Positions 6,674 through 41,470 of a DNA stretch of 64,000 nucleotides are shown here, piece by piece (position 1 is the first letter of the stretch; every line of letters starts with the position of its first letter). This DNA comes from a virus. A program made the position numbers and the translations under genes. The notes under the pieces are model-generated. The model was given only the letters and a program-made list of their open reading frames with translations, did not search any database and was not told the DNA's origin. Location: positions 32,001-96,000 of IMG/VR virus record IMGVR_UViG_3300032272_000002, one strand, 5' to 3'.

Positions 6674-6952
6674 ATGCGTTACGTCACAATGGTTGGAGAT
6701 ATCATCTCCGAGCCTTTCGAATCCAAGCATGATAGACTGTGCTTCAAGCTGCGTGACCCCAATGGCTTAGATATTACCTGCTACGCCCCCTTTCAATTGG
6801 CACACCACGTCAGAGAAGGCGACTATATTATGTGCTATGGTAAGATCGTAACGACAGATGATGGTCGCATGATTGTGTCCTTGGAAGCAATACACGAAGA
6901 AGATAGACCAGTGCCCGAGCCCAACACGTTCGAGTTAGGTGGAGCCCTGTGA
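6674..6952 (+). CDS. OB-fold-like small protein with C-terminal FELGGAL motif
   Basis: Beta-strand pattern (VREGDYIMCYG); start moved to ATG 6674 after promoter 6641-6668. Confidence 0.7.
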   Translation: MRYVTMVGDIISEPFESKHDRLCFKLRDPNGLDITCYAPFQLAHHVREGDYIMCYGKIVTTDDGRMIVSLEAIHEEDRPVPEPNTFELGGAL

Positions 6953-7227
6953 CAATTGGATATGTAGAAGGGCCAGTAATGTCAATAAGTTTTGGAATTG
7001 ATTATGTTGAATTTGACGTTCGTGCCATTGGGCAATTTAGCAACGCAGCTAAGCGAGTACGCTGTATCGCCCCCATTAATTTTAAAAGCGTTATAAAATT
7101 GAACAATGAAGTCAGCATCAGCGGCACAGTAGAACATGAGGACACGCCGAGCGGAGTTTTCTCACGTATTAGAGTCACCCGCGTTGAACGAGTGACTAAT
7201 GAATTTCTGCTCAGCGGAGCATTGTAG
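6949..7227 (+). CDS. OB-fold-like small protein with C-terminal FLLSGAL motif
   Basis: Similar pattern to the previous ORF; GTGA coupling. Confidence 0.7.
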   Translation: MTIGYVEGPVMSISFGIDYVEFDVRAIGQFSNAAKRVRCIAPINFKSVIKLNNEVSISGTVEHEDTPSGVFSRIRVTRVERVTNEFLLSGAL

Positions 7228-7251
7228 TGTACTATTAATTGGAGACATAAA

Positions 7252-7563
7252 ATGACCTAGACTCACTATTTTATTCTTGTTAGAAAAGATTTACCCCTCT
7301 CCCAGCAACTTGTGCAAGCCTCGCACGCAGCTTATGAAGCTGGGAAGAAAGATAGCGGCCCGGATATTTTATCTGTGGCAATGTGTGAGACACCCTCGGA
7401 AGACCAGCTACTAGCTGAGGCCGACAGGCTCGAATACTTAGGTATTAAATATACTCTCTTCCGAGAACCTGATAGAAATAACGAGGCCACCGCTCTATGT
7501 ACGGAACCTCTTTCTTCGCAGCAACGTAAGCGGCTCGCCCGCTGGAAGTTATGGGAGGTCTAA
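7252..7563 (+). CDS. Peptidyl-tRNA hydrolase Pth2-like protein with in-frame TAG at codon 3
   Basis: GGAG SD, then ATG ACC TAG ACT ... YFILVRKDL...QLVQASHAA...FREPD...TAL; in frame with ORF 7312-7563. Confidence 0.75.
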
Positions 7564-7565
7564 TC

Positions 7566-7592
7566 ATGTTGTAGACAGCAAGACCACCCTAA
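7566..7592 (+). other. Minigene M-L-(TAG)-T-A-R-P-P-stop
   Basis: GGAGGT SD at 7554-7559; ATG TTG TAG ACA GCA AGA CCA CCC TAA. Confidence 0.5.
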
Positions 7593-7654
7593 GTAATATC
7601 TGTTTCTGTTTTATTTACTGTTACACTTTAAACAAACAAAAAGAGATAGATATT

Positions 7655-7948
7655 ATGAAAGAACTGAAAGAACTAATCAAAACGCTCGCCGCCGAGCAGA
7701 TCGAATTGAAAGCTGGCCGTAAGACGGGATCGAATCCCGGCTATGAGAAACGCTGTGCATCTAATGATGCAGCCAGCAAAGTCCGTCGTAACAAGCCGAA
7801 GATTACTGCGGCACATAATCTGATGCATGAGCTTCGTGGCTCTGATTACCAGCATAACCTTCCCGATGATTGGGATTGGCTCTATTGGTACAGAAAGGAC
7901 ATGGAAGCCTTGCGTGCAGAGTTTGCGGTTGAGCCCGCAACAGAATAA
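7655..7948 (+). CDS. hypothetical protein
   Basis: ORF after an AT-rich leader. Confidence 0.65.
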   Translation: MKELKELIKTLAAEQIELKAGRKTGSNPGYEKRCASNDAASKVRRNKPKITAAHNLMHELRGSDYQHNLPDDWDWLYWYRKDMEALRAEFAVEPATE

Positions 7949-7952
7949 GAAT

Positions 7953-8030
7953 GGCCCCATCGTCTACTGGCGTATAGGACACCTCCCTTTCAAGGAGGAG
8001 AAGAGGGATCGATACCCTCTGGGGTCACCA
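7953..8030 (+). tRNA. tRNA-Glu(TTC)
   Basis: CT-TTC-AA, CCA. Confidence 0.9.
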
Positions 8031-8031
8031 T

Positions 8032-8107
8032 GCCTTGCTGGTGTTTAATGGCAGCACGTTGGATTTCCAATCCAAAGGTAGGAGTTCGAGTCTCCTGCGA
8101 GGTTCCA
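8032..8107 (+). tRNA. tRNA-Gly(TCC)
   Basis: TT-TCC-AA, T73, CCA. Confidence 0.9.
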
Positions 8108-8108
8108 C

Positions 8109-8136
8109 TTGACACACGCTGAGAGCGTGTTACTAT
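8109..8136 (+). promoter_or_regulatory. sigma70-like promoter with inverted repeat in the spacer
   Basis: TTGACA...TACTAT; ACACGC-N5-GCGTGT. Confidence 0.7.
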
Positions 8137-8141
8137 GTAGG

Positions 8142-8280
8142 TGTCCTTGATAGTGACTGTTTTGAATCGATATGGACAAACAACGAAAGTCGCCGGTTCA
8201 GAGCCGGTGGGGCTGCAAAAGCCTTGTGCGGGTGAGAATCCCGCTGTCGATGCAAATAGCAGAGCTATCAAATAAGGACA
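8142..8280 (+). ncRNA. tRNA-mimic RNA on a long closing stem (Y-RNA/YrlA-like architecture)
   Basis: TGTCCTT-GATAG pairs with CTATC...AAGGACA; T arm GCGGG-TGAGAAT-CCCGC; starts at the predicted TSS. Confidence 0.5.
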
Positions 8281-8500
8281 AATTATATTTATGCTAAATC
8301 AGAGCGGATACACGACGCTGACGTTTCCAGTGTCGATTGATACGAACCTCTGGTCGCGTGGGCGTCCGTTCGGCTGGACAGCGAGGCAACTATTAAAGAA
8401 ACACTATAATTTATGTATAGGCGGCGGGTCGAGTGGAGTCTTTGACTAGAAATATTCTAGGAGACGTAGAAGCGTTGAAGCCCGCCGCCGCCTTTTTCCA

Positions 8501-8701
8501 ATGAATTGTCCGAAATGTAACGCTCCTGGCCTTCGCAAGAAGGTATATGTTGTAGCAGACACACTAGCGGAGAACTTCAATCTCAGTAAGTCAGGTATCC
8601 GAAAAAAAGAAGTAGAAATACAGGCTGTCCAATGGGGACATGCAGTAGAGTATTGCCCCACCTGTCTCTGGCGGGCACCACAACGAATCTTGTTTCCATG
8701 A
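8501..8701 (+). CDS. small zinc-ribbon protein
   Basis: CPKC...CPTC. Confidence 0.6.
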   Translation: MNCPKCNAPGLRKKVYVVADTLAENFNLSKSGIRKKEVEIQAVQWGHAVEYCPTCLWRAPQRILFP

Positions 8702-9281
8702 ATAAAGAACTACTAGAAGAATTCGCCCGTATTTACAACTGTAAGACGGCGTGCGTCGAGAAAGATGGTTTTACGGTTTGTATGATCGAAGATAAAACGA
8801 TTACTGTTGGCGACGGAGTTGGTTCTTTTAATGCTTTTGATACGAAGACACCTACGGCCTGGACAGAGGCAGAGATCAATCGGGTGGCAGATCAAGCAAT
8901 CGCAGAGTACAAAAGTTTTATGCCATGAGTAAAGAAGAATTCATCCGGCTTTATGTCACGCAGTTCTTGGCCAGCTACGCAGCAGTCCATCATGCTGACG
9001 CCTGTGCTACTGGTAATCATGATTCTCTTTATCCAGTAGAAGATGCAGAGTATCAAGCGAATGTAGCTTGGGATAAGCTGCAAGAAATGGAAATAAAAAT
9101 ATAAGAAACGTGTGCGACAAATTGTGGGGCGGCAAACACTGACAACCTACCCTCACGTTCGCGGGGTTCCTTCGGGTGGACAGCGGAGTTGAATGATAGT
9201 TTAATTGGTAGAATACCCGCCTATCGGGTGGTGTCGGTTCGAGTCCTGACTCGTCAATTAAAACGCAGCGTTTCTTTTTGT

Positions 9282-9369
9282 TCATGGGTGGCCGAGTGGT
9301 CGAAGGCGAGAGGCTGTTAACCTCTTGGAGAAATTCCCATCGTAGGTTCGAATCCTACCCCATGAGCCA
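9282..9369 (+). tRNA. tRNA-Asn(GTT) with long variable arm
   Basis: TCATGGG/CCCATGA-G-CCA; CT-GTT-AA; ~16-nt variable region. Confidence 0.85.
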
Positions 9370-9396
9370 TCTAACTTATTGCTTACAAAGCGGTAC

Positions 9397-9425
9397 TTGA
9401 CATCGTGCGAAGGGCACGATAACAT
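9397..9425 (+). promoter_or_regulatory. sigma70-like promoter with inverted repeat in the spacer
   Basis: TTGACA-17-TAACAT; ATCGTGC-N5-GCACGAT. Confidence 0.65.
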
Positions 9426-9430
9426 ATAGC

Positions 9431-9691
9431 ATGGACAGAGTATTTCGAATCACGCGACTGGACACGTATTCTGCTGGTGGAGAAACTTTTTCGAAAAGGA
9501 AGCTCTACGACAACGAAAAATCTTTCCGCTCTATGTGGAGTAGATTTATCACAGAAGATAAGAAATTCAATAACACCAACATGCGGCCATATGGGTCTCA
9601 TCAGATTCAAAATACAAAGCACGACTTTGAAATGATTGCAGAAGAATTCATCAATCAATCATGGACCGAAATCGATAAATACGTCTCTTAA
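9431..9691 (+). CDS. hypothetical protein
   Basis: ORF immediately after a promoter. Confidence 0.55.
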   Translation: MDRVFRITRLDTYSAGGETFSKRKLYDNEKSFRSMWSRFITEDKKFNNTNMRPYGSHQIQNTKHDFEMIAEEFINQSWTEIDKYVS

Positions 9692-9692
9692 A

Positions 9693-10025
9693 ATGTACGA
9701 CCAAACTATCCTCCACCTTGATCGCCTTCCTCTCGCTGACCTCGGCAAGTTCAGCATGATTCTCTCGCAAATGCTGACAAGCGATCAGCGTGCGGACCTG
9801 AACTGTACCCATCCCGACCTGATGGCGGCCATGGGAGCTTTCGAGTCGCAAATCCCGCAAGTTAAGGGCTTCCAAGTCACGCAAGAAACGTGGGGTCTCG
9901 CTGCTGCTGCCATGCAAGGCAACAAGAAAATTCAGGCCATCAAGGAAGTTCGTGCTGGCACGGGCATGGGTCTGAAAGAAGCGAAAGAATACGTGGACAT
10001 CCACATGCAGTATTTGCAGCCATGA
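9693..10025 (+). CDS. Protein with ribosomal protein bL12 (L7/L12) C-terminal domain
   Basis: NKKIQAIKEVRAGTGMGLKEAKEYVD matches the bL12 CTD signature. Confidence 0.85.
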   Translation: MYDQTILHLDRLPLADLGKFSMILSQMLTSDQRADLNCTHPDLMAAMGAFESQIPQVKGFQVTQETWGLAAAAMQGNKKIQAIKEVRAGTGMGLKEAKEYVDIHMQYLQP

Positions 10026-10267
10026 ATGAACTCGTAGCAAAAATGCTAGAAGATTATTCAGAACGGCTAAGTAACAATGGCTGTAATGATCTTATTCTAG
10101 AAAATACAGAAGAAAATAGGGCACTGGTCCAGGCCGCAATTGATTGGAATGGAGACGACCAGTGTAAAATTGAGCCATATTTACAGGGCGACAAGATCTA
10201 CTTCTTCGATTATTGGATGGCCGGATATCTCGCCTCCACGTTTCGCGAAGCGAAATAAAGAACACAT

Positions 10268-10346
10268 GCGTCCGTAGCTAAACTGGACTAAGGCACCTGA
10301 CTACGAATCAGGAGATTTGAAGGTTCGAATCCTTCCGGGCGTACCA
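10268..10346 (+). tRNA. tRNA-Arg(ACG)
   Basis: CT-ACG-AA, CCA. Confidence 0.9.
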
Positions 10347-10352
10347 TATAAC

Positions 10353-10428
10353 TGCGGGATCGTTTAGTGGCCTAAGACCCGGCACTCTGACTGCCGTAAC
10401 CTGAGTTCGAATCTCAGTCCCGCTACCA
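10353..10428 (+). tRNA. tRNA-Gln(CTG)
   Basis: CT-CTG-AC, CCA. Confidence 0.88.
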
Positions 10429-10450
10429 GCCTACTTCGTAGGCTGAGGCT

Positions 10451-11332
10451 TTAGCCTCGCCTGCGATAGTGGACAGAGACCTGGATGTTGTTAGTGGTGT
10501 TAGCACTACTCCAAAAGAGTGCAAGAATACCATCGGTATCAAAATCAACATCTAAATCAACGCCACCAGCAGCAGCATCGGCATTGATACTAGCAATAGA
10601 CACACCGTCTCGATGGATTTCAATATTGCCAACAGTGGCAGCACCTTTAGTCCAAGACAAACAAGAGATGTTAGCATCAAATGGCATATAAATACCACGC
10701 GATGCAGACATGATCTGTCCGTTGTAACGACGCAAGTAGGTATCGCCAGTTTGGTTACCAGTGCGGCCAGCACCATCGGCCCGCAAGAGACCCAGCCACT
10801 TACTACCAGTGAAATTGAACGGCTCATTTAGGTCAGTACGATAGAAAGGATGGCCGGATCCCATTCCCATAGTTGGGAACGTGGATCCCGCAAAATTTCC
10901 AGACGCAGAAGCTCCGACAAGACCGAAAGACAATGATGCCTGGCCTTGCTTTACGCGAGTCATAAGCTGACCACTTTGCGTAATATCGTCTAAATTAACT
11001 CTGACAAAAGCTCGATCACCGGAACTGAGAGGAGTTTGTCCGGTATGAGAAAGTGCCTCTTCGGAGCCAGTATCAAGATCGACAAAAGAACGACTTTCAC
11101 GAATAAGATCCGTGGTCTTGTCTAGTCTTCGTACAGCTAAAACACTGGTAACGCGAGAAGGGCCAATCTCGCCGCTAGGCTTTAACAGATTAATATGATA
11201 CGCATAGTCGTATACGCCATCTTGCAATGCGGTTAGGCTACCAGGAATGATCTCAGTGTCGAAATCAATGACTGTGATCTCACCGGATGCGGCAGATAAA
11301 GTTTGTTGTTCAGAGTTTGTCCAATGTCCCAT
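10451..11332 (-). CDS. putative virion-associated protein (lone minus-strand gene in the tRNA region)
   Basis: GGAGG SD before ATG 11332; Ser/Gly/Thr-rich; TAGTGTACT motif upstream. Confidence 0.6.
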   Translation of the reverse strand: MGHWTNSEQQTLSAASGEITVIDFDTEIIPGSLTALQDGVYDYAYHINLLKPSGEIGPSRVTSVLAVRRLDKTTDLIRESRSFVDLDTGSEEALSHTGQTPLSSGDRAFVRVNLDDITQSGQLMTRVKQGQASLSFGLVGASASGNFAGSTFPTMGMGSGHPFYRTDLNEPFNFTGSKWLGLLRADGAGRTGNQTGDTYLRRYNGQIMSASRGIYMPFDANISCLSWTKGAATVGNIEIHRDGVSIASINADAAAGGVDLDVDFDTDGILALFWSSANTTNNIQVSVHYRRRG

Positions 11333-11394
11333 ATAAAAATCCTCCCAGATTGCCCTTGACGGGGGTACAAAAGAAGAGTACACTATAGCAGACT

Positions 11395-12546
11395 ATGAAC
11401 GGCATCAAACTACCTACTTTGTATCACCGAGCCTCAAAGGGTGATTTACGCCAGTGGCGAGTCTGGTCGGACGGCAAGTACGTCTGCACCGAGCACGGCA
11501 CAGTTGATGGCAAACTCCAGCAATCTCAGTACGCAGCCGAGGGCAAGAACCTTGGGCGTGCGAATGCCACGACACCCGCAGAACAGGCAATCTTGGAAGC
11601 AAAATCCAAGTGGACCTTCAAAATTGAGAGGAAATACTCCGAGACTCCCGAAGGAGCAATGGAAATCTCCACGAAACCGATGTTGGCTCATAAGTTCAAC
11701 GAGACCGATGGTTCGCTGTCTTCAAAAGGAAAGAAAGTACAATATCCCGTTTATATGCAGGCGAAACTCGATGGGGTACGCTGTATCGCTCGTCGGAATG
11801 ATGCTGGCGAAATTGAGTTGACCTCTCGCAGCGGCAAGCCTTACTACGTGCCGCACATCGAGGCCGACCTCGCAGAATGGCTGCCTGACGACATGGTTCT
11901 TGATGGCGAAATTTACGTCCACGGGGAATCATGTCAGACAATTACGTCGTGGGTCAAGTCGGCTGATCCCGAAAGAGCCAAGCGATACAAGGTGGAAAGC
12001 CTCGCATTGACATATCACGTATACGATGTGCCGATCTTCGCTGGCGAGAGTGATGAGCCGTGGTCAAGTCGCGAGCATGTCCTTGAGGACTTGGTACAAT
12101 ATGAATCGCCCAACATGACGATTGTGACTGGCAAAACCGTTCAGTCAGCGGAAGAGGTTTGGGAAGCTCATACTCTCTATCTGGAGCTTGGATTCGAGGG
12201 TGCCATTGTTCGTACACCAACTGGCATTTACAAGTGGGGATATCGTTCTGCTGATCTCTTGAAAGTAAAGCATTTCGAAGACCAGGAGTTTGAAGTGATC
12301 GGCTGCAAGGACGGCAAAGGTAAAGATGAGGGTTGTGCGACCTTTATCTGCCGAAATGATTTGACAGACGGCACCTTGGATGCTAGAATGAAGGGAGAAC
12401 TCGCTGAGCGGCAGCGATTCTATCAAGAACGAGAACAATACGTCGGACGCAAGCTCACGGTGCGGTTCCAGGGTCGAACGGACGCTGAGATCCCGCGATT
12501 CCCCGTGGGCCTAGTATTCCGAAGTGAAGAAGATATGCCTCTATAG
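11395..12546 (+). CDS. ATP-dependent DNA ligase
   Basis: KLDGVR adenylation motif, LDGEIY, EGAIVR, LLKVK, PRFP. Confidence 0.92.
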   Translation: MNGIKLPTLYHRASKGDLRQWRVWSDGKYVCTEHGTVDGKLQQSQYAAEGKNLGRANATTPAEQAILEAKSKWTFKIERKYSETPEGAMEISTKPMLAHKFNETDGSLSSKGKKVQYPVYMQAKLDGVRCIARRNDAGEIELTSRSGKPYYVPHIEADLAEWLPDDMVLDGEIYVHGESCQTITSWVKSADPERAKRYKVESLALTYHVYDVPIFAGESDEPWSSREHVLEDLVQYESPNMTIVTGKTVQSAEEVWEAHTLYLELGFEGAIVRTPTGIYKWGYRSADLLKVKHFEDQEFEVIGCKDGKGKDEGCATFICRNDLTDGTLDARMKGELAERQRFYQEREQYVGRKLTVRFQGRTDAEIPRFPVGLVFRSEEDMPL

Positions 12547-12612
12547 TATAATGGTTATTATGCCGGTTTTGTAATCCGGGGATGCCAGTTCGATTCTAGG
12601 CTAGAGGCTCCA
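12537..12612 (+). tRNA. tRNA-Thr(TGT), overlapping the ligase stop codon
   Basis: GCCTCTA/TAGAGGC-T-CCA; TT-TGT-AA. Confidence 0.8.
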
Positions 12613-12617
12613 AACAC

Positions 12618-12692
12618 GGTTCGCTGGTGTAGAGGTCTGCACATCGGTCTGAAAAGCCGAGGGTCAAGGTTCGATACCTTGGTGAACCACCA
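12618..12692 (+). tRNA. tRNA-Phe(GAA)
   Basis: CT-GAA-AA, CCA. Confidence 0.88.
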
Positions 12693-12694
12693 AA

Positions 12695-12769
12695 GGGGGC
12701 GTAGTGATAACGGTAGCACTCCTGCTTTGCAAGTAGGGAGTCGGGGTTCGATTCCCCGCGTCTCCACCA
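12695..12769 (+). tRNA. tRNA-Ala(TGC)
   Basis: G3:U70, TT-TGC-AA, CCA. Confidence 0.92.
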
Positions 12770-12774
12770 ATTCA

Positions 12775-13074: not shown

Positions 13075-13076
13075 AC

Positions 13077-13220: not shown

Positions 13221-15149
13221 ATGAAACTGAACAAGAAAACTGGCAACGTGGCGAAATCGGGCGATCTGGGCGAGCAGACTTTTAGTGTGGCTGCAACCGC
13301 TCATGCGTTCGAAATCCTTTCGTCTCGTCTCTACACCGATACCAAGCTCGCCATCGTGCGTGAGCTTTCAACCAACGCTGCCGATGCCCACGTCGATGCT
13401 GGCTGCCCCGACAAGCCTTTTGACGTGCATCTACCCTCGTATAGCCAATCTTATTTTGAGATTCGTGACTACGGCACCGGGCTGTCACACGACGATGCAA
13501 TGACGGTCTACACGACCTTCTTCGATTCCACCAGGAATGACTCGGACGACTTCACAGGTGCCCTCGGTCTCGGCTCCAAGTCGCCATTCGCGTACACTGA
13601 CGCATTCCTGGTGACCTCCTACTTCAATGGAACGGTGCGGGCCTATTCGGCATTCCGCAATGAGGCTGGCCTGCCCAGCTTCGCCCTCATGAGTGAGGCG
13701 ACTACGAACGAGCCGAACGGTCTCAAAATTCGTATCGATATTCAAACTGAGGATCGCTACGACTTCCAAGATGCTGCCAACAAGGTTTATCCTTGGTTCA
13801 ATACGGTTCCCAACTTTGTTGGCGGTGAAACGCTGTCAATTCAAGATAGGAATACTATCCTGAGCGGGAAAGGCTGGGACATCTGCAAGGGTAGTTATAG
13901 CAATGCTATTCGCGTCGTCATGGGTAACGTGTCGTATACTTGTTCTGCTGATAAGTTTACTCATACCCTGGGGAGTTACGGTGCTCTGACGCTGTTCGTG
14001 CCTATTGGTGAGTGCGGCATTGCGGCCAACCGTGAAGAACTGCACTACGACAATAAGACTCTGCAAAACATCCAGCTTCGTATCGACGACGCGATGAAAG
14101 ACGCTCAGGATCTCATGGAGGCAGAGCTTGAAAGCTCGCCAACGCTCCTCCAGCGAATTCGTGATGGTCGAAGGTTTAAAGAGATCATGAATATTCGTGG
14201 TCTTGGTGATTCAATCGAGGGGAATCAGAAAGACGCTTACAGCATCAGTAACCTGCGGGTCACGGGCTCTAAGCTCTTCATTCGACGCGATACCTATAGT
14301 GCCAGGGTTTATCCTCAGCACGATACAGTTTATACATTCATTGAGAATGATGTGGCTGATATCAAGCAGAAGCACAGGAACGCTCTCCGCTATTGGATTG
14401 ATAACCAGCCGAAGTCCAACTTTTACCTGGCAGATATTACGAGCCCCACGGTTTTCGCTGATACTTTTGGTGCTATCACCATCAAGCTGTCGGAGATTCC
14501 TGCTCCTCCTCGTAAGCAATCCACAGGAACGGCTGGCGGCCCGCGATGCTCTATCAAGCGTCTCACGTCGTCCTATCGGAAGATGGACGCCTGGCTGAAT
14601 ACTGAGACTGACGACGTGGATCCTGCAATGTCGATTGCGGTTCGTCGCAAGAGCTATAACGTGATCTTTAATGATGTCGAAATGGAGCCGAGTATTGCCT
14701 TGGAAATTGCCAAGAGCCTTGGTTTCAAAACTGTTTACGGTCTGCCGTCGTCTCGCTACGACAAGCCTCGCAATGAGCTTGGTCTCAAAGATCTGGAAAC
14801 AGAAGCAAAAAAGGCGATGCTCAAGCTCAAACTGAAAGGCACCGTCGCCCAGCACGCCTCGCTCCAGTATAACGCTGGTAACTACTCCTACGAGTTTGAC
14901 AAAGAATACTTGGATACCCTCGAAGGGCACGGCGAAGTCTGCGACAACGTTGTAGAGTTTCTCCGGAGTAAAGTGCCTGCTGCCTGGACTCGTCTACTTA
15001 GTATGTGGGAAATTGAAATCCCCAAGGTAGATGATCCCATCGTAGCTTTTTGGGAGAAGTATCCTCTCCTCAGGGGCGTGGAAAGCAACGGCAGCATTCC
15101 TAGTAACGAAATTCAAGAGTATATCAAGTGGAAGAACCTAAATTCCTAA
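13221..15149 (+). CDS. rIIA: rIIA-like protein with GHKL (HSP90-type) ATPase N-terminal domain
   Basis: RELSTNAADAH, IRDYGTGL, GALGLGSKSPFAY. Confidence 0.85.
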   Translation: MKLNKKTGNVAKSGDLGEQTFSVAATAHAFEILSSRLYTDTKLAIVRELSTNAADAHVDAGCPDKPFDVHLPSYSQSYFEIRDYGTGLSHDDAMTVYTTFFDSTRNDSDDFTGALGLGSKSPFAYTDAFLVTSYFNGTVRAYSAFRNEAGLPSFALMSEATTNEPNGLKIRIDIQTEDRYDFQDAANKVYPWFNTVPNFVGGETLSIQDRNTILSGKGWDICKGSYSNAIRVVMGNVSYTCSADKFTHTLGSYGALTLFVPIGECGIAANREELHYDNKTLQNIQLRIDDAMKDAQDLMEAELESSPTLLQRIRDGRRFKEIMNIRGLGDSIEGNQKDAYSISNLRVTGSKLFIRRDTYSARVYPQHDTVYTFIENDVADIKQKHRNALRYWIDNQPKSNFYLADITSPTVFADTFGAITIKLSEIPAPPRKQSTGTAGGPRCSIKRLTSSYRKMDAWLNTETDDVDPAMSIAVRRKSYNVIFNDVEMEPSIALEIAKSLGFKTVYGLPSSRYDKPRNELGLKDLETEAKKAMLKLKLKGTVAQHASLQYNAGNYSYEFDKEYLDTLEGHGEVCDNVVEFLRSKVPAAWTRLLSMWEIEIPKVDDPIVAFWEKYPLLRGVESNGSIPSNEIQEYIKWKNLNS

Positions 15150-15355
15150 TTAGTGATCTCGGCATCGTGATCTTCTCGGTGGCTGGGGAGACCTTCCAGG
15201 TCGGCCCTGGCCACCAGTATCATCAGACAATTCTGGAAGCCGTCAAGAACGACAAGTGGGCAGAGATCCTGCCGCTCGTCCCCGAGCTTCCTAAGAAAAT
15301 GAAGGTACATATCGGCATCTATCTAGACACCTTCGACCTTGGTGGAGCCCTGTGA
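15128..15355 (+). CDS. rIIB N-terminus-like fragment with C-terminal FDLGGAL motif
   Basis: Position directly after rIIA; HQYHQTILEAVK pattern recalls rIIB N-termini (from memory). Confidence 0.55.
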   Translation: MEEPKFLISDLGIVIFSVAGETFQVGPGHQYHQTILEAVKNDKWAEILPLVPELPKKMKVHIGIYLDTFDLGGAL

Positions 15356-27710: not shown

Positions 27711-28448
27711 ATGAAATATCCCAAGATTCCTTCGACCAGCCTCCAATGCAAGTGGAATCATGGCAAGTTCGAACAGATGTTTGCTCCGACAGCAGACGAG
27801 AACTACATTGGACTGGTACGCTCTCTCCTGGGTGATCTAGGAATGCGTGATTCTGACATGAAGGACGGACCATGGCTCGCTGGTGGAACGTGTCGCCGTC
27901 TACTAGAAGGTCAGCTATATCTAGGAGCGGACTTTGACCTCTTCTTTAAAAACGAAAAACAGAAAAACGAACTGCGGGATTTCATCATTCAACAATATGA
28001 TCCCGAGATTATGTTCGAAAGCGAAAACGCCGTGACGTACAAGGTGCTTTATTACAATCGTATTGTGATTCTGCAACTTATTCACCGCAAGTACTATGAT
28101 ATGCCGTCTGACGTGATCTCCGACTTTGACATCATCGCATGTCAATTCGTCACAAACGGAGAGGTAGTCGTACACGGCACGATGGCACCTGACCAAGTAG
28201 CAAAGCGAATCCTCCGCGTAAGCCCTTCTGTTGTTAACAAAGAATCATTCTCTGCGGTGCATACACTTCGCCGCATGATTAAGATGGGCCAGGACGGATA
28301 TCGCATGGGACAATATCACGTAGGAGAATTCCTAAATCATGTGGTAAAAAACCCGAAGCTCATCAAATATGATACGCCAATGAGCCCTGAGTATGATGAA
28401 AACGGTAATCCGTGTGTTGCCATCAAGATTCCTGGCGTACCATTCTAA
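27711..28448 (+). CDS. nucleotidyltransferase (poly(A) polymerase/CCA-adding head-like)
   Basis: WLAGG...DFDLFF...SDFDI. Confidence 0.7.
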   Translation: MKYPKIPSTSLQCKWNHGKFEQMFAPTADENYIGLVRSLLGDLGMRDSDMKDGPWLAGGTCRRLLEGQLYLGADFDLFFKNEKQKNELRDFIIQQYDPEIMFESENAVTYKVLYYNRIVILQLIHRKYYDMPSDVISDFDIIACQFVTNGEVVVHGTMAPDQVAKRILRVSPSVVNKESFSAVHTLRRMIKMGQDGYRMGQYHVGEFLNHVVKNPKLIKYDTPMSPEYDENGNPCVAIKIPGVPF

Positions 28449-30439: not shown

Positions 30440-30979
30440 ATGACTAAGACATTTGTAACAAGTGATACCCACTTCAATCACGCCAACATTCTAAAATACT
30501 GTCCCGACAGGGGTTATGCCTCTGTCGAGGACATGAATGCTGACATGATTAAGGTGTGGAATGAGACAGTGGCCGCCGAGGACACCGTTTACTTCCTTGG
30601 TGACTTTGCTATGGGTAAAAAGGAATTCCATCTGGAGTTTCTCAAAGCCCTGAATGGAACCATTCGTTTTGTACCAGGCAATCACGACTACTATATTCGC
30701 AAGCTAAATAAGCGTGGCGAGCTACCTGAGAACGTAGAGATGCTACCACCTATTTATAATCTGAACCAAGACGGTCAGATCTATGTCTTTTGTCACTTCC
30801 CCATCGCTGAGTGGGAGGCCATGACAGGACACGCCAGCGACGGCAGGACGGGGGCTATCCATTATCACGGTCATGTTCATGGCCAGAACGGGGCAGTCAC
30901 GGGGCCTGATCGCTACGACATTGGCTGGGACGTATACGGCAAACCTATTGAACTGCATGTGCCTTATGAAAACATTTGA
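30440..30979 (+). CDS. calcineurin-like metallophosphoesterase
   Basis: SDTHFNH, LGDFA, GNHD, HGHVH. Confidence 0.9.
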   Translation: MTKTFVTSDTHFNHANILKYCPDRGYASVEDMNADMIKVWNETVAAEDTVYFLGDFAMGKKEFHLEFLKALNGTIRFVPGNHDYYIRKLNKRGELPENVEMLPPIYNLNQDGQIYVFCHFPIAEWEAMTGHASDGRTGAIHYHGHVHGQNGAVTGPDRYDIGWDVYGKPIELHVPYENI

Positions 30980-31165
30980 TTTAGTACGTGACGAAGACGC
31001 TTCGGGCGTGAGTGGTGTTGGATGCGTGGCGGAAGGTGTCGAGTTTACTGACGGCACCGTAGCCCTACGTTGGCGAACTAAGATGGCATGCACTGGAGTC
31101 TATGACTCTATCGAGCACGTCGTTGAAATCCACGGGCACGAAGGTAAAACACAAGTAGTATTTAA

Positions 31166-32200
31166 ATGAGAGACCCTATCCTCTTAAAGAAGATCGAGCA
31201 AGAAGTCCAGGCTGGCAATGTTGTTGCCAGTGAGTGGGAGGGTCTAACCGTATATAAGTATACGCAAGAATGTCACCATGAAAATAGATGGAATGATATT
31301 AACAGACAGTGCCGGGGAATCATCCTAGACAAGCATGGACGAGTCTTCGCCCGTCCTTTTTCCAAGTTCTTCAACCTCAACGAAGTCGCGGAGACCATGT
31401 ACGACCAGCTACCGTGGGATTGCGGCGTACAAGTATTCGAGAAATTGGATGGCTCCTGTGGCACCTTGTTTCGCCACCCGCAGCATGGCGTATGCCTATC
31501 CACTCCTGGCAGCATGCAATCTGACCAGGCCAAGATGGGCACCGAGATACTCCGTCGTAGCTCGTGGGGCACTAACTTTATGGCCGACCTACCAGACGAC
31601 TGCACTCCTATCTTCGAGATTATCTATCCCGAAAACCGCATCGTCGTAGACTACCGAGGTCGCGAAGACCTTGTGCTGCTATCTATCTTTCAATTGAACG
31701 GAGAAGAGTGGCATCAGAATAGAGTAGACGCTATTGCTGAGAAGCATGGCATCACCCGCCCTCGCCGCTTCGACCTAGACGTTACTGACATTCAATTCCA
31801 GGACAACGAGGAGGGATACGTGTTCCTCTTCGATAACGGACTGCGTGTCAAGTCTAAGAGTCCAACGTACCTGCGGATTCACAGGCTGCTTAATTACCTG
31901 AGCCCAAAGGGCGTCATTGATCTTATCCGTGGTCATGAGTACAGAACCACGCTGGCCCAATTGCCAGATTCTATTCAGCAGGACTTCGACGACATCAGGG
32001 CGTACGTCCAGACTATGTTCGACGAGACCCGCAACAAAGTGGAGGCATTCCACCTTGCGGTGCCGCAAGGCACACGCAAGGACCAGGCTATGTGGATTAC
32101 GGGATGCGTGGAGCGTGAGCTTCAAGGGCTCGTCTTCGCAAAACTAGACAACAAAGATATCACGGAGAGTCTATGGCGAGTAGTAATCAATACTCTCTAG
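31166..32200 (+). CDS. T4 Rnl1-type RNA ligase
   Basis: CRGII, KFFNLNE, EKLDGS, FEIIYPENRIVV, EGYV. Confidence 0.9.
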   Translation: MRDPILLKKIEQEVQAGNVVASEWEGLTVYKYTQECHHENRWNDINRQCRGIILDKHGRVFARPFSKFFNLNEVAETMYDQLPWDCGVQVFEKLDGSCGTLFRHPQHGVCLSTPGSMQSDQAKMGTEILRRSSWGTNFMADLPDDCTPIFEIIYPENRIVVDYRGREDLVLLSIFQLNGEEWHQNRVDAIAEKHGITRPRRFDLDVTDIQFQDNEEGYVFLFDNGLRVKSKSPTYLRIHRLLNYLSPKGVIDLIRGHEYRTTLAQLPDSIQQDFDDIRAYVQTMFDETRNKVEAFHLAVPQGTRKDQAMWITGCVERELQGLVFAKLDNKDITESLWRVVINTL

Positions 32201-32541: not shown

Positions 32542-32542
32542 A

Positions 32543-35071: not shown

Positions 35072-35557
35072 ATGAATAAAAGATTTGATACAAGAACCGA
35101 AGAAGAGTTTAAAGCAGAAATTGCCCATAGAACCCTTCTTGAACGTGAGCTATTCCTAGAGTGGCTCAATCTACAAGAGAAAGAGACGGGTGTGCTGCCT
35201 AAGTTTACTGACACAGGGTGTGGTAATCATGGTGAGTTCATCGAGGACAAAAAGGTTTCAACTGCTGCTGACTTTGACGTGGAGGGTATTGGCCTGGTAG
35301 AAGTAAAATTCGCCAAGCCAATGCTCAAGCGTGACTTTCACCTCAAGGTTGGACAAACTAAATCATACATTAAGCAGGGTGCCATGATCCTTATGGTGAT
35401 TGGAGCCGACGAAGACGTACCAAAATTTACATTGATTAACGTTGAAGCTCTCGAAGAGATTGTTGAAACGTGTCCCATTGTAAAGTGGGTAGGCTTCGGC
35501 TTCAAGCCCTCGTATAGAATTGAAATTGGGAAATTCGTATGGCGAGACCTAAAGTAA
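35072..35557 (+). CDS. putative PD-(D/E)xK nuclease
   Basis: ADF...VEVK. Confidence 0.5.
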   Translation: MNKRFDTRTEEEFKAEIAHRTLLERELFLEWLNLQEKETGVLPKFTDTGCGNHGEFIEDKKVSTAADFDVEGIGLVEVKFAKPMLKRDFHLKVGQTKSYIKQGAMILMVIGADEDVPKFTLINVEALEEIVETCPIVKWVGFGFKPSYRIEIGKFVWRDLK

Positions 35558-35805
35558 CCGGCGAACCTCACGACGTGCTGGGCCCATTCGAGGTGCATCA
35601 TAATCCAGAGCAAAACGCATGGATCATTAAGTATAATGAAGCGTCCGATAAATACCTCAATATGTTTGGAAATTTAGCCAACCTGCCTGATCTCTTTGCG
35701 ACTCGTGCAAGTGCTATGAATCTCATCTATGATTTAGTCGCAGGTAATAGGCTTCTAAATACTACTCCCGTAGATGACTCATTCAAACTAAGCGGTGCCC
35801 TATGA
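35539..35805 (+). CDS. small protein with C-terminal FKLSGAL motif
   Basis: ORF track. Confidence 0.7.
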   Translation: MARPKVTGEPHDVLGPFEVHHNPEQNAWIIKYNEASDKYLNMFGNLANLPDLFATRASAMNLIYDLVAGNRLLNTTPVDDSFKLSGAL

Positions 35806-36380
35806 AATTTGATATCATTATCCCTACTATCAATCGCATGTCTTTGAATGCAGCAGTAGAGTCTGTGTATGCCCAACGCTATACGGACTGGAGATTGTTT
35901 GTGGTAGGCGATGGTGTGATGCCTGATCTTGAAGGCTACGATAAGGATAGGGTTTGTGTCATGTCTATTGACCAACGTACTGCTGACAGCGGTGCGAGTC
36001 AACGCAATATGGGCATCCGAATTGGTGACAGCCCCTGGATCGCCTACCTAGATGATGATGACGTGTGGTATCCCGACCACCTGAGTACTATCGTTGAGCT
36101 ACACGAGGAGTTTCGTGACGCTGACATGTTTAAAACAGCAGCTCAAGAAATGGTTATGTCTCGGAAAAGTCCTCGACATAAGAAAGAAAAAATGAAGTTG
36201 CGGTGTGTAAATGAGGACGACCCCCTTACTATTACAATAGCACATTCAAGAGACCTGTTCTATAAGACTTCGAAGTGGCAAGCAAAAGATAACCACGACC
36301 ACATCTTATGGAATGAAATGCTGGCAGCAGGCGGCCAGCCAGCTAAAAGCAAAAGTGTAACGGCACTATATCTCAGATGA
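35802..36380 (+). CDS. GT2 glycosyltransferase
   Basis: IIIPT, RNMGI, YLDDDD. Confidence 0.85.
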   Translation: MKFDIIIPTINRMSLNAAVESVYAQRYTDWRLFVVGDGVMPDLEGYDKDRVCVMSIDQRTADSGASQRNMGIRIGDSPWIAYLDDDDVWYPDHLSTIVELHEEFRDADMFKTAAQEMVMSRKSPRHKKEKMKLRCVNEDDPLTITIAHSRDLFYKTSKWQAKDNHDHILWNEMLAAGGQPAKSKSVTALYLR

Positions 36381-37567
36381 AAATTATCAACCTCTTTAGC
36401 GAGAACTTCAAGCGGATTAAAGCCGTAGAAATTAAGCCAGACGGCAACATCGTTTATATCTCTGGTATGAATGGTGAAGGCAAGACCTCTATCCTCGACG
36501 CCATCTGGGACACTCTGGAGCACAGAGCTACCAAGAAGCGGATCAAGGAGCCTCTCCGGGTCGGAGCGGAGAAAGGTCGCAACGAAATTGACCTTGGTCA
36601 GTACATTATCACTAGGACTTATGGCCCTGAGGGCAAGACTACTCTCAAGGTAGAGACGCCTAGCGGCAGCATCATCAAGTCGCCCCAGCGTTTGCTTGAT
36701 ACTCTCGTCGGAGACTTGAGCTTCGACCCATGGGATTTCATCCGACAAACAGATCAGAAGCAACGCGAAGCGTTGGCTGACCTTCTATATAATCTAACAG
36801 ACGGCAAGTTCGACGTGAGCGAATTCGAACGCCGCCATAATAAAGCTTACGAAGAGAGGACTGCCGAGAACCGAGACAAGAAACGTCTCGACGGTATGAT
36901 CTCTACTCTCCTGCCTCCGACAGATAAAGATCCTACTACAGAAACATCTGTTGCGGAGCTATCTGACAAACTGGACTTGGCTATTGAGAAATCTAAGAAT
37001 GAAATAGAGATTGATACGCTGAGACAACGGGTCGTCGAGTTGGAGGCTCGCAACCAAGAGATTGGTGCCTTGGACCACGAAGACATTCGTCGGCAGCTAG
37101 AAAATATTGAGTCGCAGAATAAGAGGGCCCGCGAAGTTACGCTGTACCACAACACTAAGAAAGACTTGGCCGAAGTGGAGGCGAGGGTGGACGCACTGAA
37201 CGATGAGATGGAATTGGTGAAAATTGAGAAAGCGGAGGCCCTAGAGTCCGCTTCGCTCCCCGTAAAGGGTTTAACTGTCACCGAGGACGGAATTATGCTG
37301 GCGAACTCAACAAATGATTTGGTACCTTTTTGTCAGGCGTCTACCGCACAGCAATTGAGGGTAGCACTCGCCATTGCCATGACTGCCAACCCAGACTTAC
37401 GAGTCATTCGTATCGCGGACGGCTCTCTTTTGGACGATAACAGCCTGCAAATTATCGAAGAAATGGCAGGAGAACAAGACTTTCAGATTTGGATTGAATA
37501 TGCATCGCGAAACGACCAGGATAGGGTGGGCGTCTACATCGAAGACGGATCCATCGTAGAGAATTAG
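36377..37567 (+). CDS. SMC/Rad50-like ABC ATPase with coiled coil
   Basis: ENFKRI, GMNGEGKTS, STAQQ signature, IRIADGSLLD. Confidence 0.8.
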   Translation: MKIINLFSENFKRIKAVEIKPDGNIVYISGMNGEGKTSILDAIWDTLEHRATKKRIKEPLRVGAEKGRNEIDLGQYIITRTYGPEGKTTLKVETPSGSIIKSPQRLLDTLVGDLSFDPWDFIRQTDQKQREALADLLYNLTDGKFDVSEFERRHNKAYEERTAENRDKKRLDGMISTLLPPTDKDPTTETSVAELSDKLDLAIEKSKNEIEIDTLRQRVVELEARNQEIGALDHEDIRRQLENIESQNKRAREVTLYHNTKKDLAEVEARVDALNDEMELVKIEKAEALESASLPVKGLTVTEDGIMLANSTNDLVPFCQASTAQQLRVALAIAMTANPDLRVIRIADGSLLDDNSLQIIEEMAGEQDFQIWIEYASRNDQDRVGVYIEDGSIVEN

Positions 37568-37971
37568 TGTATTCGTTAGTGCGGCATTGCCGTAGGAGAC
37601 TATTATGGCTATTAAACTTAACTGGAACGTCCTGTCTGATGTCAAATCCGACCTCGAAGATACCTGGAAACTGAAGCCAGAGACCAAGGTAACGTTCGTC
37701 CTTCTAATGAAGGACGGCTCCCATCACAAGAAGACTATTAAGTTTTCTGAATTTCTAAAGTTCTTTTGGTTTATTTATGACAGCACTAATTTTCACGTCA
37801 AGGGCCTAGTAGTAACAGATACTACAGGCAAGATCCTTTATCGCCACCGACAAACGACTGGCGAACACGAAGAAATCCCGAACGGTGGCAACGTACACAT
37901 CTTTGATCGTTGGAACAATATGACTGACGGTCAAAAAGATGCCCACCTGAACATCCTACTATCTCAAATTT

Positions 37972-38508
37972 ATGACTACACAGAATCCTCTCGAAACTCT
38001 AACGGTTGACGAATGGGACGCCCTAATTATCAGCATCGTTAAGAGATACTTTTCGATTGCTCGTAGAAGCTCTGGCATCGACATTGATGATTTGAAGCAG
38101 GAAGCATGGCACGCATTGATGCGAGCCTGCAAGAATCATGATCCCGAGAAAGCCGCTAAGTCTGGCGTGAAGTTTAGTACGTATGCCTATGCGTATATCG
38201 ACGGCCAGCTTCGTAGGTATGTCTCCAACAGCTATAAAAATCCTGCCAGCGTAGACATCGACAATGTGACTATTGAAGATGAAGACTATGATCTGGAAGG
38301 AGATTTTGTCAAGGACGAATTGGCTGCCAAGATCTTTGAGCTGGCCGATGGGGCGAAACACTCTGAGCTATTGGTGGAGCACTTTGTCAAGGGTAAAACC
38401 TATCGTCAAATTGCATCTGAGCTTGGGGTCTCTCACAATCTCATTCACTTACGTATTCACAGCGTGCTGAAAAAAGTACAAGAGGATCTGTATGATGATA
38501 ACTATTAA
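37972..38508 (+). CDS. sigma-70 family RNA polymerase sigma factor
   Basis: Region 2 DDLKQEA...FSTYAYAYI; region 4 HTH TYRQIASELGVS. Confidence 0.85.
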   Translation: MTTQNPLETLTVDEWDALIISIVKRYFSIARRSSGIDIDDLKQEAWHALMRACKNHDPEKAAKSGVKFSTYAYAYIDGQLRRYVSNSYKNPASVDIDNVTIEDEDYDLEGDFVKDELAAKIFELADGAKHSELLVEHFVKGKTYRQIASELGVSHNLIHLRIHSVLKKVQEDLYDDNY

Positions 38509-38690
38509 GATTATCTCGTGTAAACTGTGCGGTGGCCAGTACTACGGCGGCGAACAAGACGTGAAGCTGAAAGCTGGCAACGAACGCAACGCACCAACTG
38601 AGGTATATTTTACCACACTAAAGGTATCCAAGTGTGCCACCTGTCAAACACACGCAGACCGCACTAAGGCGGCTCGCAAAAAGAGACTCC

Positions 38691-39626
38691 ATGATTGAGG
38701 AATACACACACATTGGTCACATGAGACCAGACACAAAATATAACAACGTGTTCCTGGTGCAAAACTCTGCGGTCAAGACAACACGTAAAAGTAGAGAGCC
38801 CTATCTCTCCGTTACCCTGGCCGATGTCACTGGTCGCATTGAGGGTGCTATCTGGAATTGTTCTAATACAGATGTTGTTAAGCCGGGGAGCTATGTGTCT
38901 CTTGAAATTATTACTAAGACATACAAGGACACCCTGCAATTCAACGCCAAAGGTCGTACAGTACAACCCTTCAACGGAACTCCCCAGAATGCAGAGGACT
39001 ATGTGCGTGGACCTGGCGAGGCTGTGCTCGACTACTATGCCGACGAGCTGCGTCAGCATGTTGATAGTATCGACGATCCCGAGTACCGCGACATGCTTCA
39101 CGAACAGGTGGACATCATTGATACACTGAGGAATGCGTCCTTCGGGCAGACTGGCCCGCTTGCTCATCCGGGCGGCCTCTTGATCCACACCGTCCACGTA
39201 ATTCGATTGGCTCGTGCCTCTGTTGAGAAGTGTGGCGATATCGATGGCCTAAAAGTTAACAACTCCCTGGTCATTCTGGGAGGACTGCTTCGCAACATCG
39301 GCTGGGCAACCACAATGACGCTAGAGGGTAACTTCTTTCGTCCCCGCGATGCATTCTTTATGACTGGTGTTTACAAGGCGTCAGCCCGATATGTGGATCA
39401 TCTTATGATGGCGGTCGAAACGGACAAGGGTATTGCATTAAATGAAAGTAAGAAACAATCACTCTCTAATATGTGTGGCCCCATTGAGGACATCCGTACT
39501 CTTGAGGGCAAAGTGGTGGCTTGGGCGGGCGATATGGCTGGCATCATGCACCTTGGCGGCTTTGCCATGAACCTCAAGCAAGATGGTAGCTGGAAGGGTG
39601 ACTTCTTCGTGGGGCACCTATCATGA
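38691..39626 (+). CDS. YhaM/Cbf1-like OB + degenerate HD-domain protein
   Basis: YLSVTLADVTGRIEGAIW; GGLLIHT; LLRNIG where LHDIG is expected. Confidence 0.7.
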   Translation: MIEEYTHIGHMRPDTKYNNVFLVQNSAVKTTRKSREPYLSVTLADVTGRIEGAIWNCSNTDVVKPGSYVSLEIITKTYKDTLQFNAKGRTVQPFNGTPQNAEDYVRGPGEAVLDYYADELRQHVDSIDDPEYRDMLHEQVDIIDTLRNASFGQTGPLAHPGGLLIHTVHVIRLARASVEKCGDIDGLKVNNSLVILGGLLRNIGWATTMTLEGNFFRPRDAFFMTGVYKASARYVDHLMMAVETDKGIALNESKKQSLSNMCGPIEDIRTLEGKVVAWAGDMAGIMHLGGFAMNLKQDGSWKGDFFVGHLS

Positions 39627-39865
39627 ATCCCGATGCAGAACTAATGTATCGCGAACTACACACGGCCTATAACCATGGGCTCATCTCTAAAGAGCAAGCT
39701 GCCTCCATGTGGAAGATGTATAATAAGCCCTTGGAACAGGTAACATATAACTTTCCAGTGAGCAAACCTATCGTGGGCTACTTCAACTTTAATACTGGCG
39801 AATCTATGAGCCAAGAAGAATTCGAACGAGCTGAAAATGAATTTGTTTTACGAGGAGCACTATGA
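39623..39865 (+). CDS. small protein with C-terminal FVLRGAL motif
   Basis: ATGA coupling on both sides. Confidence 0.7.
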   Translation: MNPDAELMYRELHTAYNHGLISKEQAASMWKMYNKPLEQVTYNFPVSKPIVGYFNFNTGESMSQEEFERAENEFVLRGAL

Positions 39866-40626
39866 GCAGACTAGAACGAGCAAGAATCGCTGGTAAAGTT
39901 AATCGCGATGCTATTGAACATGGCTTCAGCCTAGCTAAGCCTGGCGTAACTCTACGCGAGCTAGACACTGAGCTTGGCAGCTTCATTAAATTTCACGAAG
40001 GTTGCACGCCAGCATTCCTCGGCTATAAAGGCTTCCCGCGTAACGCCTGTATCTCAGTGAATTACGTAGCCGTACACGGTGTTGCAGACGAACACGTCAT
40101 CAAGGAGGGCGACCTCCTAACGATTGATATTGGCACTATCTATGAAGGGATGTATGCCGACGCGGCGAGTACGCGAGTAATCGGTAGTGAGCTAGAGCAC
40201 GAACAAGAGTGGCATCTGTCTGAGTCTGTACAGATCGTCCTGCAAAAACAGTTAGAGGTAGTACGCGACGGCACCTCTCTTCTCGATATTGCACAGGCTG
40301 GACAAGCCGCTGCGGAAGATCTCTGTCTGCACATGGTAGAGGATCTCGGCGGCCACTATATCGGAGAGCAATTACATATGGATCCGTTCATTCCTAACTG
40401 CATCGATTATCGACGCGGCAAGCTGAGTGCGGACCTTCAAAAGAAAAAATATTCCCAACATCTTTTGCGTACTGGGGACATTATTTGTATTGAACCTGTT
40501 ATTACTTACGGAAGTACGGACCTCACTGTTGGTGCAGATGATTGGACGTGCAGTACGGCAGCTCTCTCGGCTCACGCCGAGCATATGATTTTAGTTACTG
40601 AAACCGGATACGAGATTTTATCATGA
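39862..40626 (+). CDS. map: methionine aminopeptidase type I
   Basis: CISVN..AVHG, IDIG...YAD, GHYIG..LH, IEP, AHAEH. Confidence 0.92.
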   Translation: MSRLERARIAGKVNRDAIEHGFSLAKPGVTLRELDTELGSFIKFHEGCTPAFLGYKGFPRNACISVNYVAVHGVADEHVIKEGDLLTIDIGTIYEGMYADAASTRVIGSELEHEQEWHLSESVQIVLQKQLEVVRDGTSLLDIAQAGQAAAEDLCLHMVEDLGGHYIGEQLHMDPFIPNCIDYRRGKLSADLQKKKYSQHLLRTGDIICIEPVITYGSTDLTVGADDWTCSTAALSAHAEHMILVTETGYEILS

Positions 40627-41186
40627 ATACTATCATTACACACCTAGACAACGACCGTTTCCCGATTCTAGAGGCAGAATCACAGCCAGTTAGTGTACCT
40701 ATTAGTGCCCTCGACCTCGAACATATTGAGAGGATGGACGTTACTTTGAGAGATTTGGAAGACGGTGCGGCAGGACTTGCCGCAGTACAAATTGGATACC
40801 CCAAACGCATCTTCTTGCTTCGTAAGGATGGGGAAAACCGTGTCTTCATCAATCCCACTGTTATTGCACGAAGCAAGGAAACCCGGAAGCGTCCCGAGGC
40901 GTGCCTGTCTCTGCCTGGACTTGTTGTACAGACCACTCGTCCCAAATCTGTGACTCTAAAGTACTTCGATCTAGAAGGTGCTGAGCACACCGAAACCTTT
41001 GCTGGTTTCTGGGCACAGGCTGTTGCTCACGAGATGGATCACCTTAATGGTACCCTTCTAACTCGTCACTTGGAAGCTCAGTATGCCAAGACTGACACTC
41101 GTACCAAGTTCGGTATGAAGATGAATGCCCATCGCACCAAAGCGATTGCCAAGCGTCGTGCAAAGAACAAGCGGTCAAAGAAATGA
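40623..41186 (+). CDS. def: peptide deformylase
   Basis: GLAAVQIG, EACLS, HEMDHL. Confidence 0.92.
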   Translation: MNTIITHLDNDRFPILEAESQPVSVPISALDLEHIERMDVTLRDLEDGAAGLAAVQIGYPKRIFLLRKDGENRVFINPTVIARSKETRKRPEACLSLPGLVVQTTRPKSVTLKYFDLEGAEHTETFAGFWAQAVAHEMDHLNGTLLTRHLEAQYAKTDTRTKFGMKMNAHRTKAIAKRRAKNKRSKK

Positions 41187-41470
41187 CCAATAGCAAGTCC
41201 AAGATCGTGGAGGATCTAAACCTCCATAAATTCCAGCAACAGATTCTTGGTGAATTCAAAGAGTTCACCATGCCTATTGTTAGATCAGGGTTTCCAAGTA
41301 CTCCGTTGAACGAGTTGTATAAAAAACAGATCATGACGGCGAAACCGGCCTCGATCAAATGGAACTTCGTGTACAGCGAAGAGGATAAAAAATGGAATAG
41401 CGTAGATGAACTTCCTCGTGAACAGGTAGAATCTGAGAGCGATGAATTCGTATTGACCGGAGCCTTATAA
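41183..41470 (+). CDS. small protein with C-terminal FVLTGAL motif
   Basis: ATGA coupling. Confidence 0.7.
   Translation: MTNSKSKIVEDLNLHKFQQQILGEFKEFTMPIVRSGFPSTPLNELYKKQIMTAKPASIKWNFVYSEEDKKWNSVDELPREQVESESDEFVLTGAL

Follow-up and report, generated by a model that had tools for sequence, protein, structure and literature searches.

A shared C-terminal peptide on 33 unrelated small proteins of an uncultured tailed phage and its possible readers

We examined a group of small open reading frames (ORFs) in a 64,000-nucleotide stretch of phage DNA (the window), which represents bases 32,001-96,000 of the 169,742-bp genome of an uncultured tailed phage (IMG/VR record IMGVR_UViG_3300032272_000002). 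Seventeen ORFs of the window end in L-x-G-A-L directly before the stop codon, and 14 of the 17 also have Phe at position -7, counting back from the last residue. A first-pass annotation had drawn attention to this shared ending, here called the tail or tag, and its end coordinates and C-terminal residues were verified for every ORF. The phage encodes a DnaE polymerase, RecA, DnaB and ClpP, along with a terminase and portal of its own and a large cluster of glycosyltransferases; it has 28 tRNAs and no tmRNA (ARAGORN). The genome is 83% complete by CheckV and falls in a family of 148-183-kb phages in IMG/VR; no close cultured relative was found.

The whole genome holds 33 tagged ORFs, approximately 13% of its genes. 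Aligned at their C-termini, they give the consensus [acidic linker]-F-x-[LIV]-x-G-A-L-stop, with Gly at -3, Leu at -1 and L, I or V at -5 each present in 33/33, Ala at -2 in 30/33 and Phe at -7 in 29/33. The commonest residues at the two free positions are Glu at -6 and Gly at -4. The 10 residues before the motif carry a net charge of -2.0 (vs. -0.25) and form the acidic linker. Based on the frequency of the five-residue pattern at internal positions (15 of 46,967), 0.08 tails would be expected over 250 C-termini, compared to the 33 found (binomial P ~1e-74). The full seven-residue motif has no internal occurrence genome-wide. Among 1000 stop-to-stop segments, GAL was the top C-terminal tripeptide with 30 occurrences, and the runner-up had 4. 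The stop codon is TAG in 6/33 tails, about the genome rate. That the shared C-terminal label is real is beyond doubt.

The tagged genes are scattered across 110 kb amid early and metabolic genes. Six lie at genome 3.8-7.1 kb, six at 28.9-31.8 kb (within 3 kb upstream of the gene for a MoxR-type ATPase), 17 in the window and four among the glycosyltransferases. The plus-strand placement described at first holds within the window, but the four ORFs of the glycosyltransferase cluster are on the minus strand. No tag was found in the structural module (genome 127-168 kb), consistent with the observation that virion genes lack it. The tagged proteins are small (median ~85 aa), and without their tails no BLASTP match was detected among them at E<0.05, in agreement with the description of the bodies as unrelated. 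Of the names given to individual bodies, OB-fold (PF01336, a weak match) and ParB-like (phrog_1033) were recovered by family scans, but the zinc-finger and rIIB names were not confirmed. Table 1 lists the tagged ORFs of the window and two further genes discussed below. In three of these ORFs the stop falls on the 5' end of a tRNA gene or lies no more than 7 nt from it; the tRNAs are those for Trp (13001), Ser (18236) and Val (27279).

Table 1. Tagged ORFs of the window and the two genes of a candidate reader (window coordinates)
Feature	Position	Strand	Remarks
MoxR-type AAA+ ATPase, 503 aa	1..1388	+	candidate reader; genome 31877-33388, starts 123 nt left of the window
HExxH metallopeptidase + vWA (DUF2201) protein	1475..2899	+	candidate reader; MIDAS motifs
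Tagged ORF, 92 aa	6674..6952	+	OB-fold-like; tagged orthologue in L177
Tagged ORF, 82 aa	6979..7227	+	alternative start GTG 6949; TAG stop
Tagged ORF, 75 aa	12775..13002	+	no F(-7); stop overlaps tRNA-Trp 5' end; tail identical in relative L124
Tagged ORF, 75 aa	15128..15355	+	N-terminal fragment of a longer untagged protein
Tagged ORF, 85 aa	15352..15609	+
Tagged ORF, 67 aa	15606..15809	+	two CxxC pairs
Tagged ORF, 63-86 aa	17976..18236	+	stop overlaps tRNA-Ser 5' end
Tagged ORF, 79 aa	18873..19112	+
Tagged ParB-like protein, 224 aa	20613..21287	+	linker and tag = residues 211-224, past the domain end
Tagged ORF, 89-105 aa	21332..21601	+	L(-7)
Tagged ORF, 77 aa	23176..23409	+	Cys-rich
Tagged ORF, 93-161 aa	24255..24740	+	length depends on choice of start
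Tagged ORF, 132-138 aa	26874..27272	+	no F(-7); end 7 nt from tRNA-Val
Tagged ORF, 122 aa	32173..32541	+	3' of RNA ligase
Tagged ORF, 88 aa	35539..35805	+	between two genes abutting in untagged sister G015
Tagged ORF, 80 aa	39623..39865	+	overlaps M24 peptidase gene start
Tagged ORF, 95 aa	41183..41470	+	between peptide deformylase and PhoH (abutting in G015, G004)

Several observations show the tail as an addition to proteins that exist without it. Of 112 homologs of the ParB-like protein, 110 lack the motif and finish with the last strand of the domain or close to it; linker and tag occur only in this phage and its relative. In the AlphaFold model of this protein, the body has a predicted local distance difference test (pLDDT) score of ~93 and residues 211-224 score 52-57, and the tail is thus predicted to lie outside the fold and to be flexible. 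The ORF at 15128-15355 corresponds to the first 60-odd residues of a protein of 281-340 aa in untagged relatives, shortened and finished with the tag, and at two other tagged ORFs the flanking core genes are direct neighbors in the sister phage G015. The proposal of a protein-level tail, appended at a free C-terminus to unrelated bodies, is supported by the ParB-like homologs, the drop in pLDDT and the changes between orthologs described next.

Two tagged relatives were compared with this phage: a 167-kb JGI contig, of which 20.7 kb was examined and contains 11 tails, and Logan SRR4039777, with 9 tails in 18.7 kb. In the 14 ortholog pairs that these relatives provide, changes at the five fixed positions of the tail were synonymous in 35 cases and altered the amino acid in 4; at the two free positions the numbers were 6 and 12 (fixed vs. 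free, P=3e-5). Selection therefore acts on the peptide, as had been suspected. Purifying selection also acts on the bodies (pN/pS 0.41, vs. 0.28 in untagged genes), which for this reason are working proteins rather than spacers; the constraint on bodies and tails together supports translation of the tagged ORFs. A DNA repeat or recombination cassette was rejected as the nature of the tail, since its synonymous sites diverge; such processes may have had a role in its spread.

The accompanying claim that the codons vary freely did not survive. GGC is never used for Gly before Ala in the tails, which follows from a genome-wide avoidance (0/250) and suggests an avoided restriction site containing GGCGC or GCGC. 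GGA is enriched at the tail Gly codon (16/32 vs. a background of 0.24), as are Leu-stop overlaps, and 23/33 tagged ORFs reach or overlap the start of the next gene, vs. 72/194 untagged ORFs (P=6e-4). Because of this start coupling and the GGA enrichment, the last codons of the tail often double as the ribosome-binding site of the next gene. Taken further, the tail might be a cis-acting translation device, in which the next gene would take its Shine-Dalgarno sequence and overlapping start from the last codons, and the nascent peptide would modulate termination or re-initiation. The start coupling, the GGA enrichment and the insertion of tagged ORFs at junctions that are contiguous in relatives speak for such a device. 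However, all 47 untagged overlapping genes lack a GAL ending, the Shine-Dalgarno codon is changed synonymously in 8/14 ortholog pairs, and a pure DNA signal does not explain F(-7) and L(-5). Moreover, the tail persists where coupling to the next gene is altered or missing, and is kept in ten uncoupled ORFs, for some of which relatives have the identical tail. We consider this explanation improbable, though the nascent peptide may have some effect. The frequent double use of the Gly-Ala-Leu-stop codons, as ribosome-binding site and overlapping start of the gene that follows, probably helped the tail to spread; it does not explain the tail.

A five-gene tree groups the three tagged phages in a single clade (support 1.0), to which the untagged phage G015 is sister. 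No shared tail of any sequence was found in eleven other family records read fully or nearly so (one of them, G021, in part), and 19 records scanned by pattern gave matches at chance level only. Scans for the DNA pattern returned 2 matches in IMG/VR and 115 in metagenomes, one per contig and nearly all in short frames, as expected by chance. Since the tagged phages form one clade and other family members lack the tail, its origin was a single one, in the three-phage clade.

The comparison with relatives also bears on the suggestion that the tail is a cargo-loading peptide for the virion or a compartment. Encapsulin cargo and the internal proteins of T4 offer precedents, being small, diverse proteins sorted by short terminal tags. 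However, the capsid protein is 81-92% identical in relatives that lack the tail, the structural module has no tagged gene, and the tagged genes sit among early and metabolic genes. No encapsulin was recognized in the phage and no encapsulin or shell co-varies with the tag. A cargo function is therefore disfavored, and we regard it as very unlikely.

The annotation had further proposed a ubiquitin-like precursor tail, or decoys that occupy a host defense sensor; in both cases a host defense enzyme that conjugates or senses C-termini would be the partner. The phage does carry the anti-defense genes Acb5 and Gad2, and Gly-Gly precedes Ala-Leu in the tail. The latter is true of only 19/33 tails, however, with R, E, S, T, D and W also tolerated at -4, and searches of the phage for ThiF/E1, JAB (Prok-JAB) and PDZ genes found none (in a genome 83% complete). 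The tagged bodies match no ubiquitin-like beta-grasp family, which speaks against conjugation, and decoys fit poorly with conserved bodies, as they need no set of 33 different ones. Decoys or precursors of this kind are thus very unlikely indeed.

The tail is not a member of any family against which it was tested: it is not ssrA, ubiquitin-like, an FxSxx-COOH module or a demonstrable capsid cargo peptide. Searches of the open literature, with subscription journals outside their scope, yielded no account of the motif or of phage tails shared across a genome. The nearest likeness is to the C-degrons of Clp proteases (ssrA; AAL of SpxA2, PMC10782952; reviewed in PMC8138137), which are likewise short nonpolar signals at a free C-terminus. 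In Streptococcus mutans, a C-terminal AAL tripeptide suffices in vivo for ClpX-, ClpC- and ClpE-dependent degradation, including that of green fluorescent protein (PMC10782952). GAL is one residue from AAL, and the phage encodes a ClpP. Unlike these degrons, the phage tail spans seven residues with fixed F and L anchors and an acidic linker, and it is found on 33 proteins, whereas AAL ends a single S. mutans protein, SpxA2. It also differs from ssrA proper in being gene-encoded in a genome without tmRNA, and its degradation is inferred by analogy.

It is probable that one shared reader, of whatever kind, recognizes the tail. The leading account, in which we place somewhat less than even confidence, is that an AAA+ machine reads the tail as a built-in C-degron or docking signal. 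The tail would then be a hard-wired C-terminal address peptide, gained once and placed on 33 functional, unrelated accessory proteins. A shared reader would grip the free carboxylate of the last Leu and the side chains of F(-7) and L(-5), and by analogy this reader is most likely an AAA+ machine that uses ATP to unfold, remodel or degrade the tagged proteins collectively. The outcome would be timed turnover of the phage's early and middle accessory proteins. A degron or adaptor tail for an AAA+ protease, one of the options in the first-pass annotation, is thus the best fit among them, but rests on analogy. Its more general picture, of variable modules that dock through a free C-terminus, stands as far as the tail on unrelated bodies is concerned; a single receptor for all of them is a reasonable inference.

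Two kinds of AAA+ reader can be envisaged. The first, a host Clp-type unfoldase that feeds host or phage ClpP, is a tentative proposal, yet somewhat more likely than the second, the phage's own pair of a MoxR ATPase and a metallopeptidase with a von Willebrand factor A (vWA) domain, which we regard as a doubtful candidate. Both proteins of this pair retain their motifs (Walker, HExxH and MIDAS, the metal ion-dependent adhesion site). NorQ-NorD is a two-gene machine of the same kind, in which the MoxR ATPase NorQ binds a hydrophobic C-terminus and NorD is held by its last two residues (PMC13036017); in contrast to what is proposed here, that C-terminus belongs to the vWA partner and not to clients. 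The MIDAS sites of vWA domains have been proposed to capture peptides (PMC7159879). In jumbo phages, a MoxR and metallopeptidase-vWA pair was assigned a possible role in virion assembly, with no client tag described (PMC7824862). FxSxx-COOH/vWA-MoxR ternary modules resemble the phage system in that genes for a zincin peptidase and vWA-MoxR lie close to those of small proteins that diverge rapidly yet keep a conserved peptide at the C-terminus (PMC7159879). In these modules, the precursor and its dedicated peptidase are encoded in one operon, which often includes a radical-SAM enzyme as well as a third component, for example VMAP (PMC7159879), whereas the phage tags have another motif and sit on 33 dispersed, unrelated proteins, and no radical-SAM enzyme or VMAP is present in the genome annotation.

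The distribution of the MoxR-vWA pair was compared with that of the tail. The pair is present and intact in this phage and in SRR4039777 (syntenic, 73-75% identical), which are both of the tagged phages in which it could be tested, and is missing from seven untagged relatives. A strict linkage of tail and pair, suggested by their joint absence from these seven, failed because closer untagged relatives have the pair. From this distribution, the pair is older than the tag and independent of it. No other recognizable phage gene is exclusive to tagged phages either. It follows that the reader would be either an older phage machine with changed specificity or a host protein. SPFH was rejected as a reader, being absent from the syntenic place in the tagged relative L124 and present in untagged G016, as was the second AAA ATPase (genome 11304-12431), which is present in untagged G012, G014, G016 and G021. 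A predicted complex of two MoxR domains, the vWA-peptidase, Mg and the tail scored 0.00 and counts neither way.

Several points weigh against an AAA+ machine as the reader. The comparisons identified no reader, and with a single origin of the tag its co-occurrence with any gene cannot be tested statistically. The MoxR-vWA pair is found in the untagged sisters G015, G016 and G020, as well as in G013 and G014; it also occurs, without a tail, in phiRSL1 (50 kb scanned), and another 80 viral loci have it but no shared tail within 10 kb. ClpP, rejected as a reader on co-occurrence, is likewise present in untagged relatives. A Phe and Leu at fixed distance are not required by known tripeptide degrons, and acidic linkers typify docking tails more than they do degrons. 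Finally, GAL itself is not mentioned in the paper that describes the AAL degron (PMC10782952).

These features of the tail lead to the principal alternative, docking without degradation. Here the acidic linker and F-x-L-x-G-A-L would bind the pocket of one hub, such as a complex for replication, transcription or translation or one at the membrane, from either host or phage, and gather many different effectors on it. The acidic linker, the fixed seven-residue register, the flexible placement and the conserved bodies resemble tails of the single-stranded DNA-binding protein (SSB), clamp-binding and FtsZ types. The acidic tail of SSB, the T4 clamp-binding peptides and the encapsulin cargo peptides share with the phage tail an acidic linker and hydrophobic anchors on a flexible end, and in the clamp-binding and encapsulin cases one receptor serves several clients. 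They differ in consensus and have far fewer clients, and no clamp, encapsulin or similar receptor was recognized in the phage. That no phage gene is exclusive to the tagged phages would fit a host hub met after a host switch. On the other hand, no hub has been identified, the bodies have no evident common target, and a terminal tripeptide of small nonpolar residues looks like a degron. Docking of this kind is possible, but we think it unlikely.

The phage ClpP (genome 120267-120884, minus strand) retains its catalytic Ser and His, and its catalytic Asp is replaced by Asn. The same Asn is found in the tagged 167-kb relative, and 45 of 46 other homologs with that position keep Asp. As a single event, the change is a lead rather than a test.

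A cultured phage offers a parallel to the tail. Over 50 kb of Vibrio phage phiKT1024 (OM249648.1), P-E-x-x-I is the ending of at least 15 of 91 genes. This phage carries a MoxR ATPase, a DUF2201 vWA-peptidase and ClpP, as well as an AAA ATPase that belongs to the family of the second one in the phage studied here. The gene after its MoxR ATPase is tagged, and its vWA-peptidase gene, 46 kb away, is flanked by tagged genes. As the two phages are unrelated in tail sequence and lineage, shared tails have had more than one origin. It is conceivable, although speculative, that large phages repeatedly evolve a lineage-specific address code for their proteome, in the form of a C-terminal tail on dozens of accessory proteins, read by their own MoxR-vWA-metallopeptidase as a private ATP-dependent protease or delivery system. 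If so, the phage described here would represent a recent and datable origin of such a code on a pre-existing machine.

Most small phage genes lack a known function, and how phages manage them as a group is not understood. A shared tail would reveal a layer of post-translational control over an eighth of the genes. The seven-residue tail could serve as a pull-down handle on its reader and perhaps as a new orthogonal degron or docking tag. The origin of the tag can be placed on a tree, with untagged sister phages available for comparison, and since phiKT1024 is in culture and has another tail, the general question can be addressed by bench experiments.

Some further genes of the phage deserve mention. 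A protein with an L7/L12 C-terminal-type domain (window 9693-10025), a fold related to the ClpS adaptor, is absent from all untagged relatives compared; a host search with this L12-like gene found no relative in GTDB. A 158-kb contig of the same phage family (NZ_JAILWB010000012.1), untagged and with a capsid 86% identical, lies inside a Hydrogenophaga metagenome-assembled genome, where it was probably co-binned, and is only a weak host hint. The anti-defense genes Gad2 (PF26128; window 27711-28448) and Acb5 (PF26761; window 30966-31169) are conserved in relatives. The large cluster at genome 94.5-115 kb, with glycosyltransferases, a GDP-mannose dehydratase, an epimerase, methyltransferases and a sulfotransferase-like gene, is largely kept across the family. 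An M24 (methionine aminopeptidase-type) peptidase gene adjoins that of peptide deformylase (window 39862-41186) in an arrangement conserved family-wide. Lastly, a Pth2-like gene (window 7252-7563) has TAG as codon 3, and a tRNA with a CUA anticodon (6560-6633) lies 620 nt upstream. Because this amber codon is retained in the untagged phages G015 and G016, it looks like a conserved readthrough site rather than an error.

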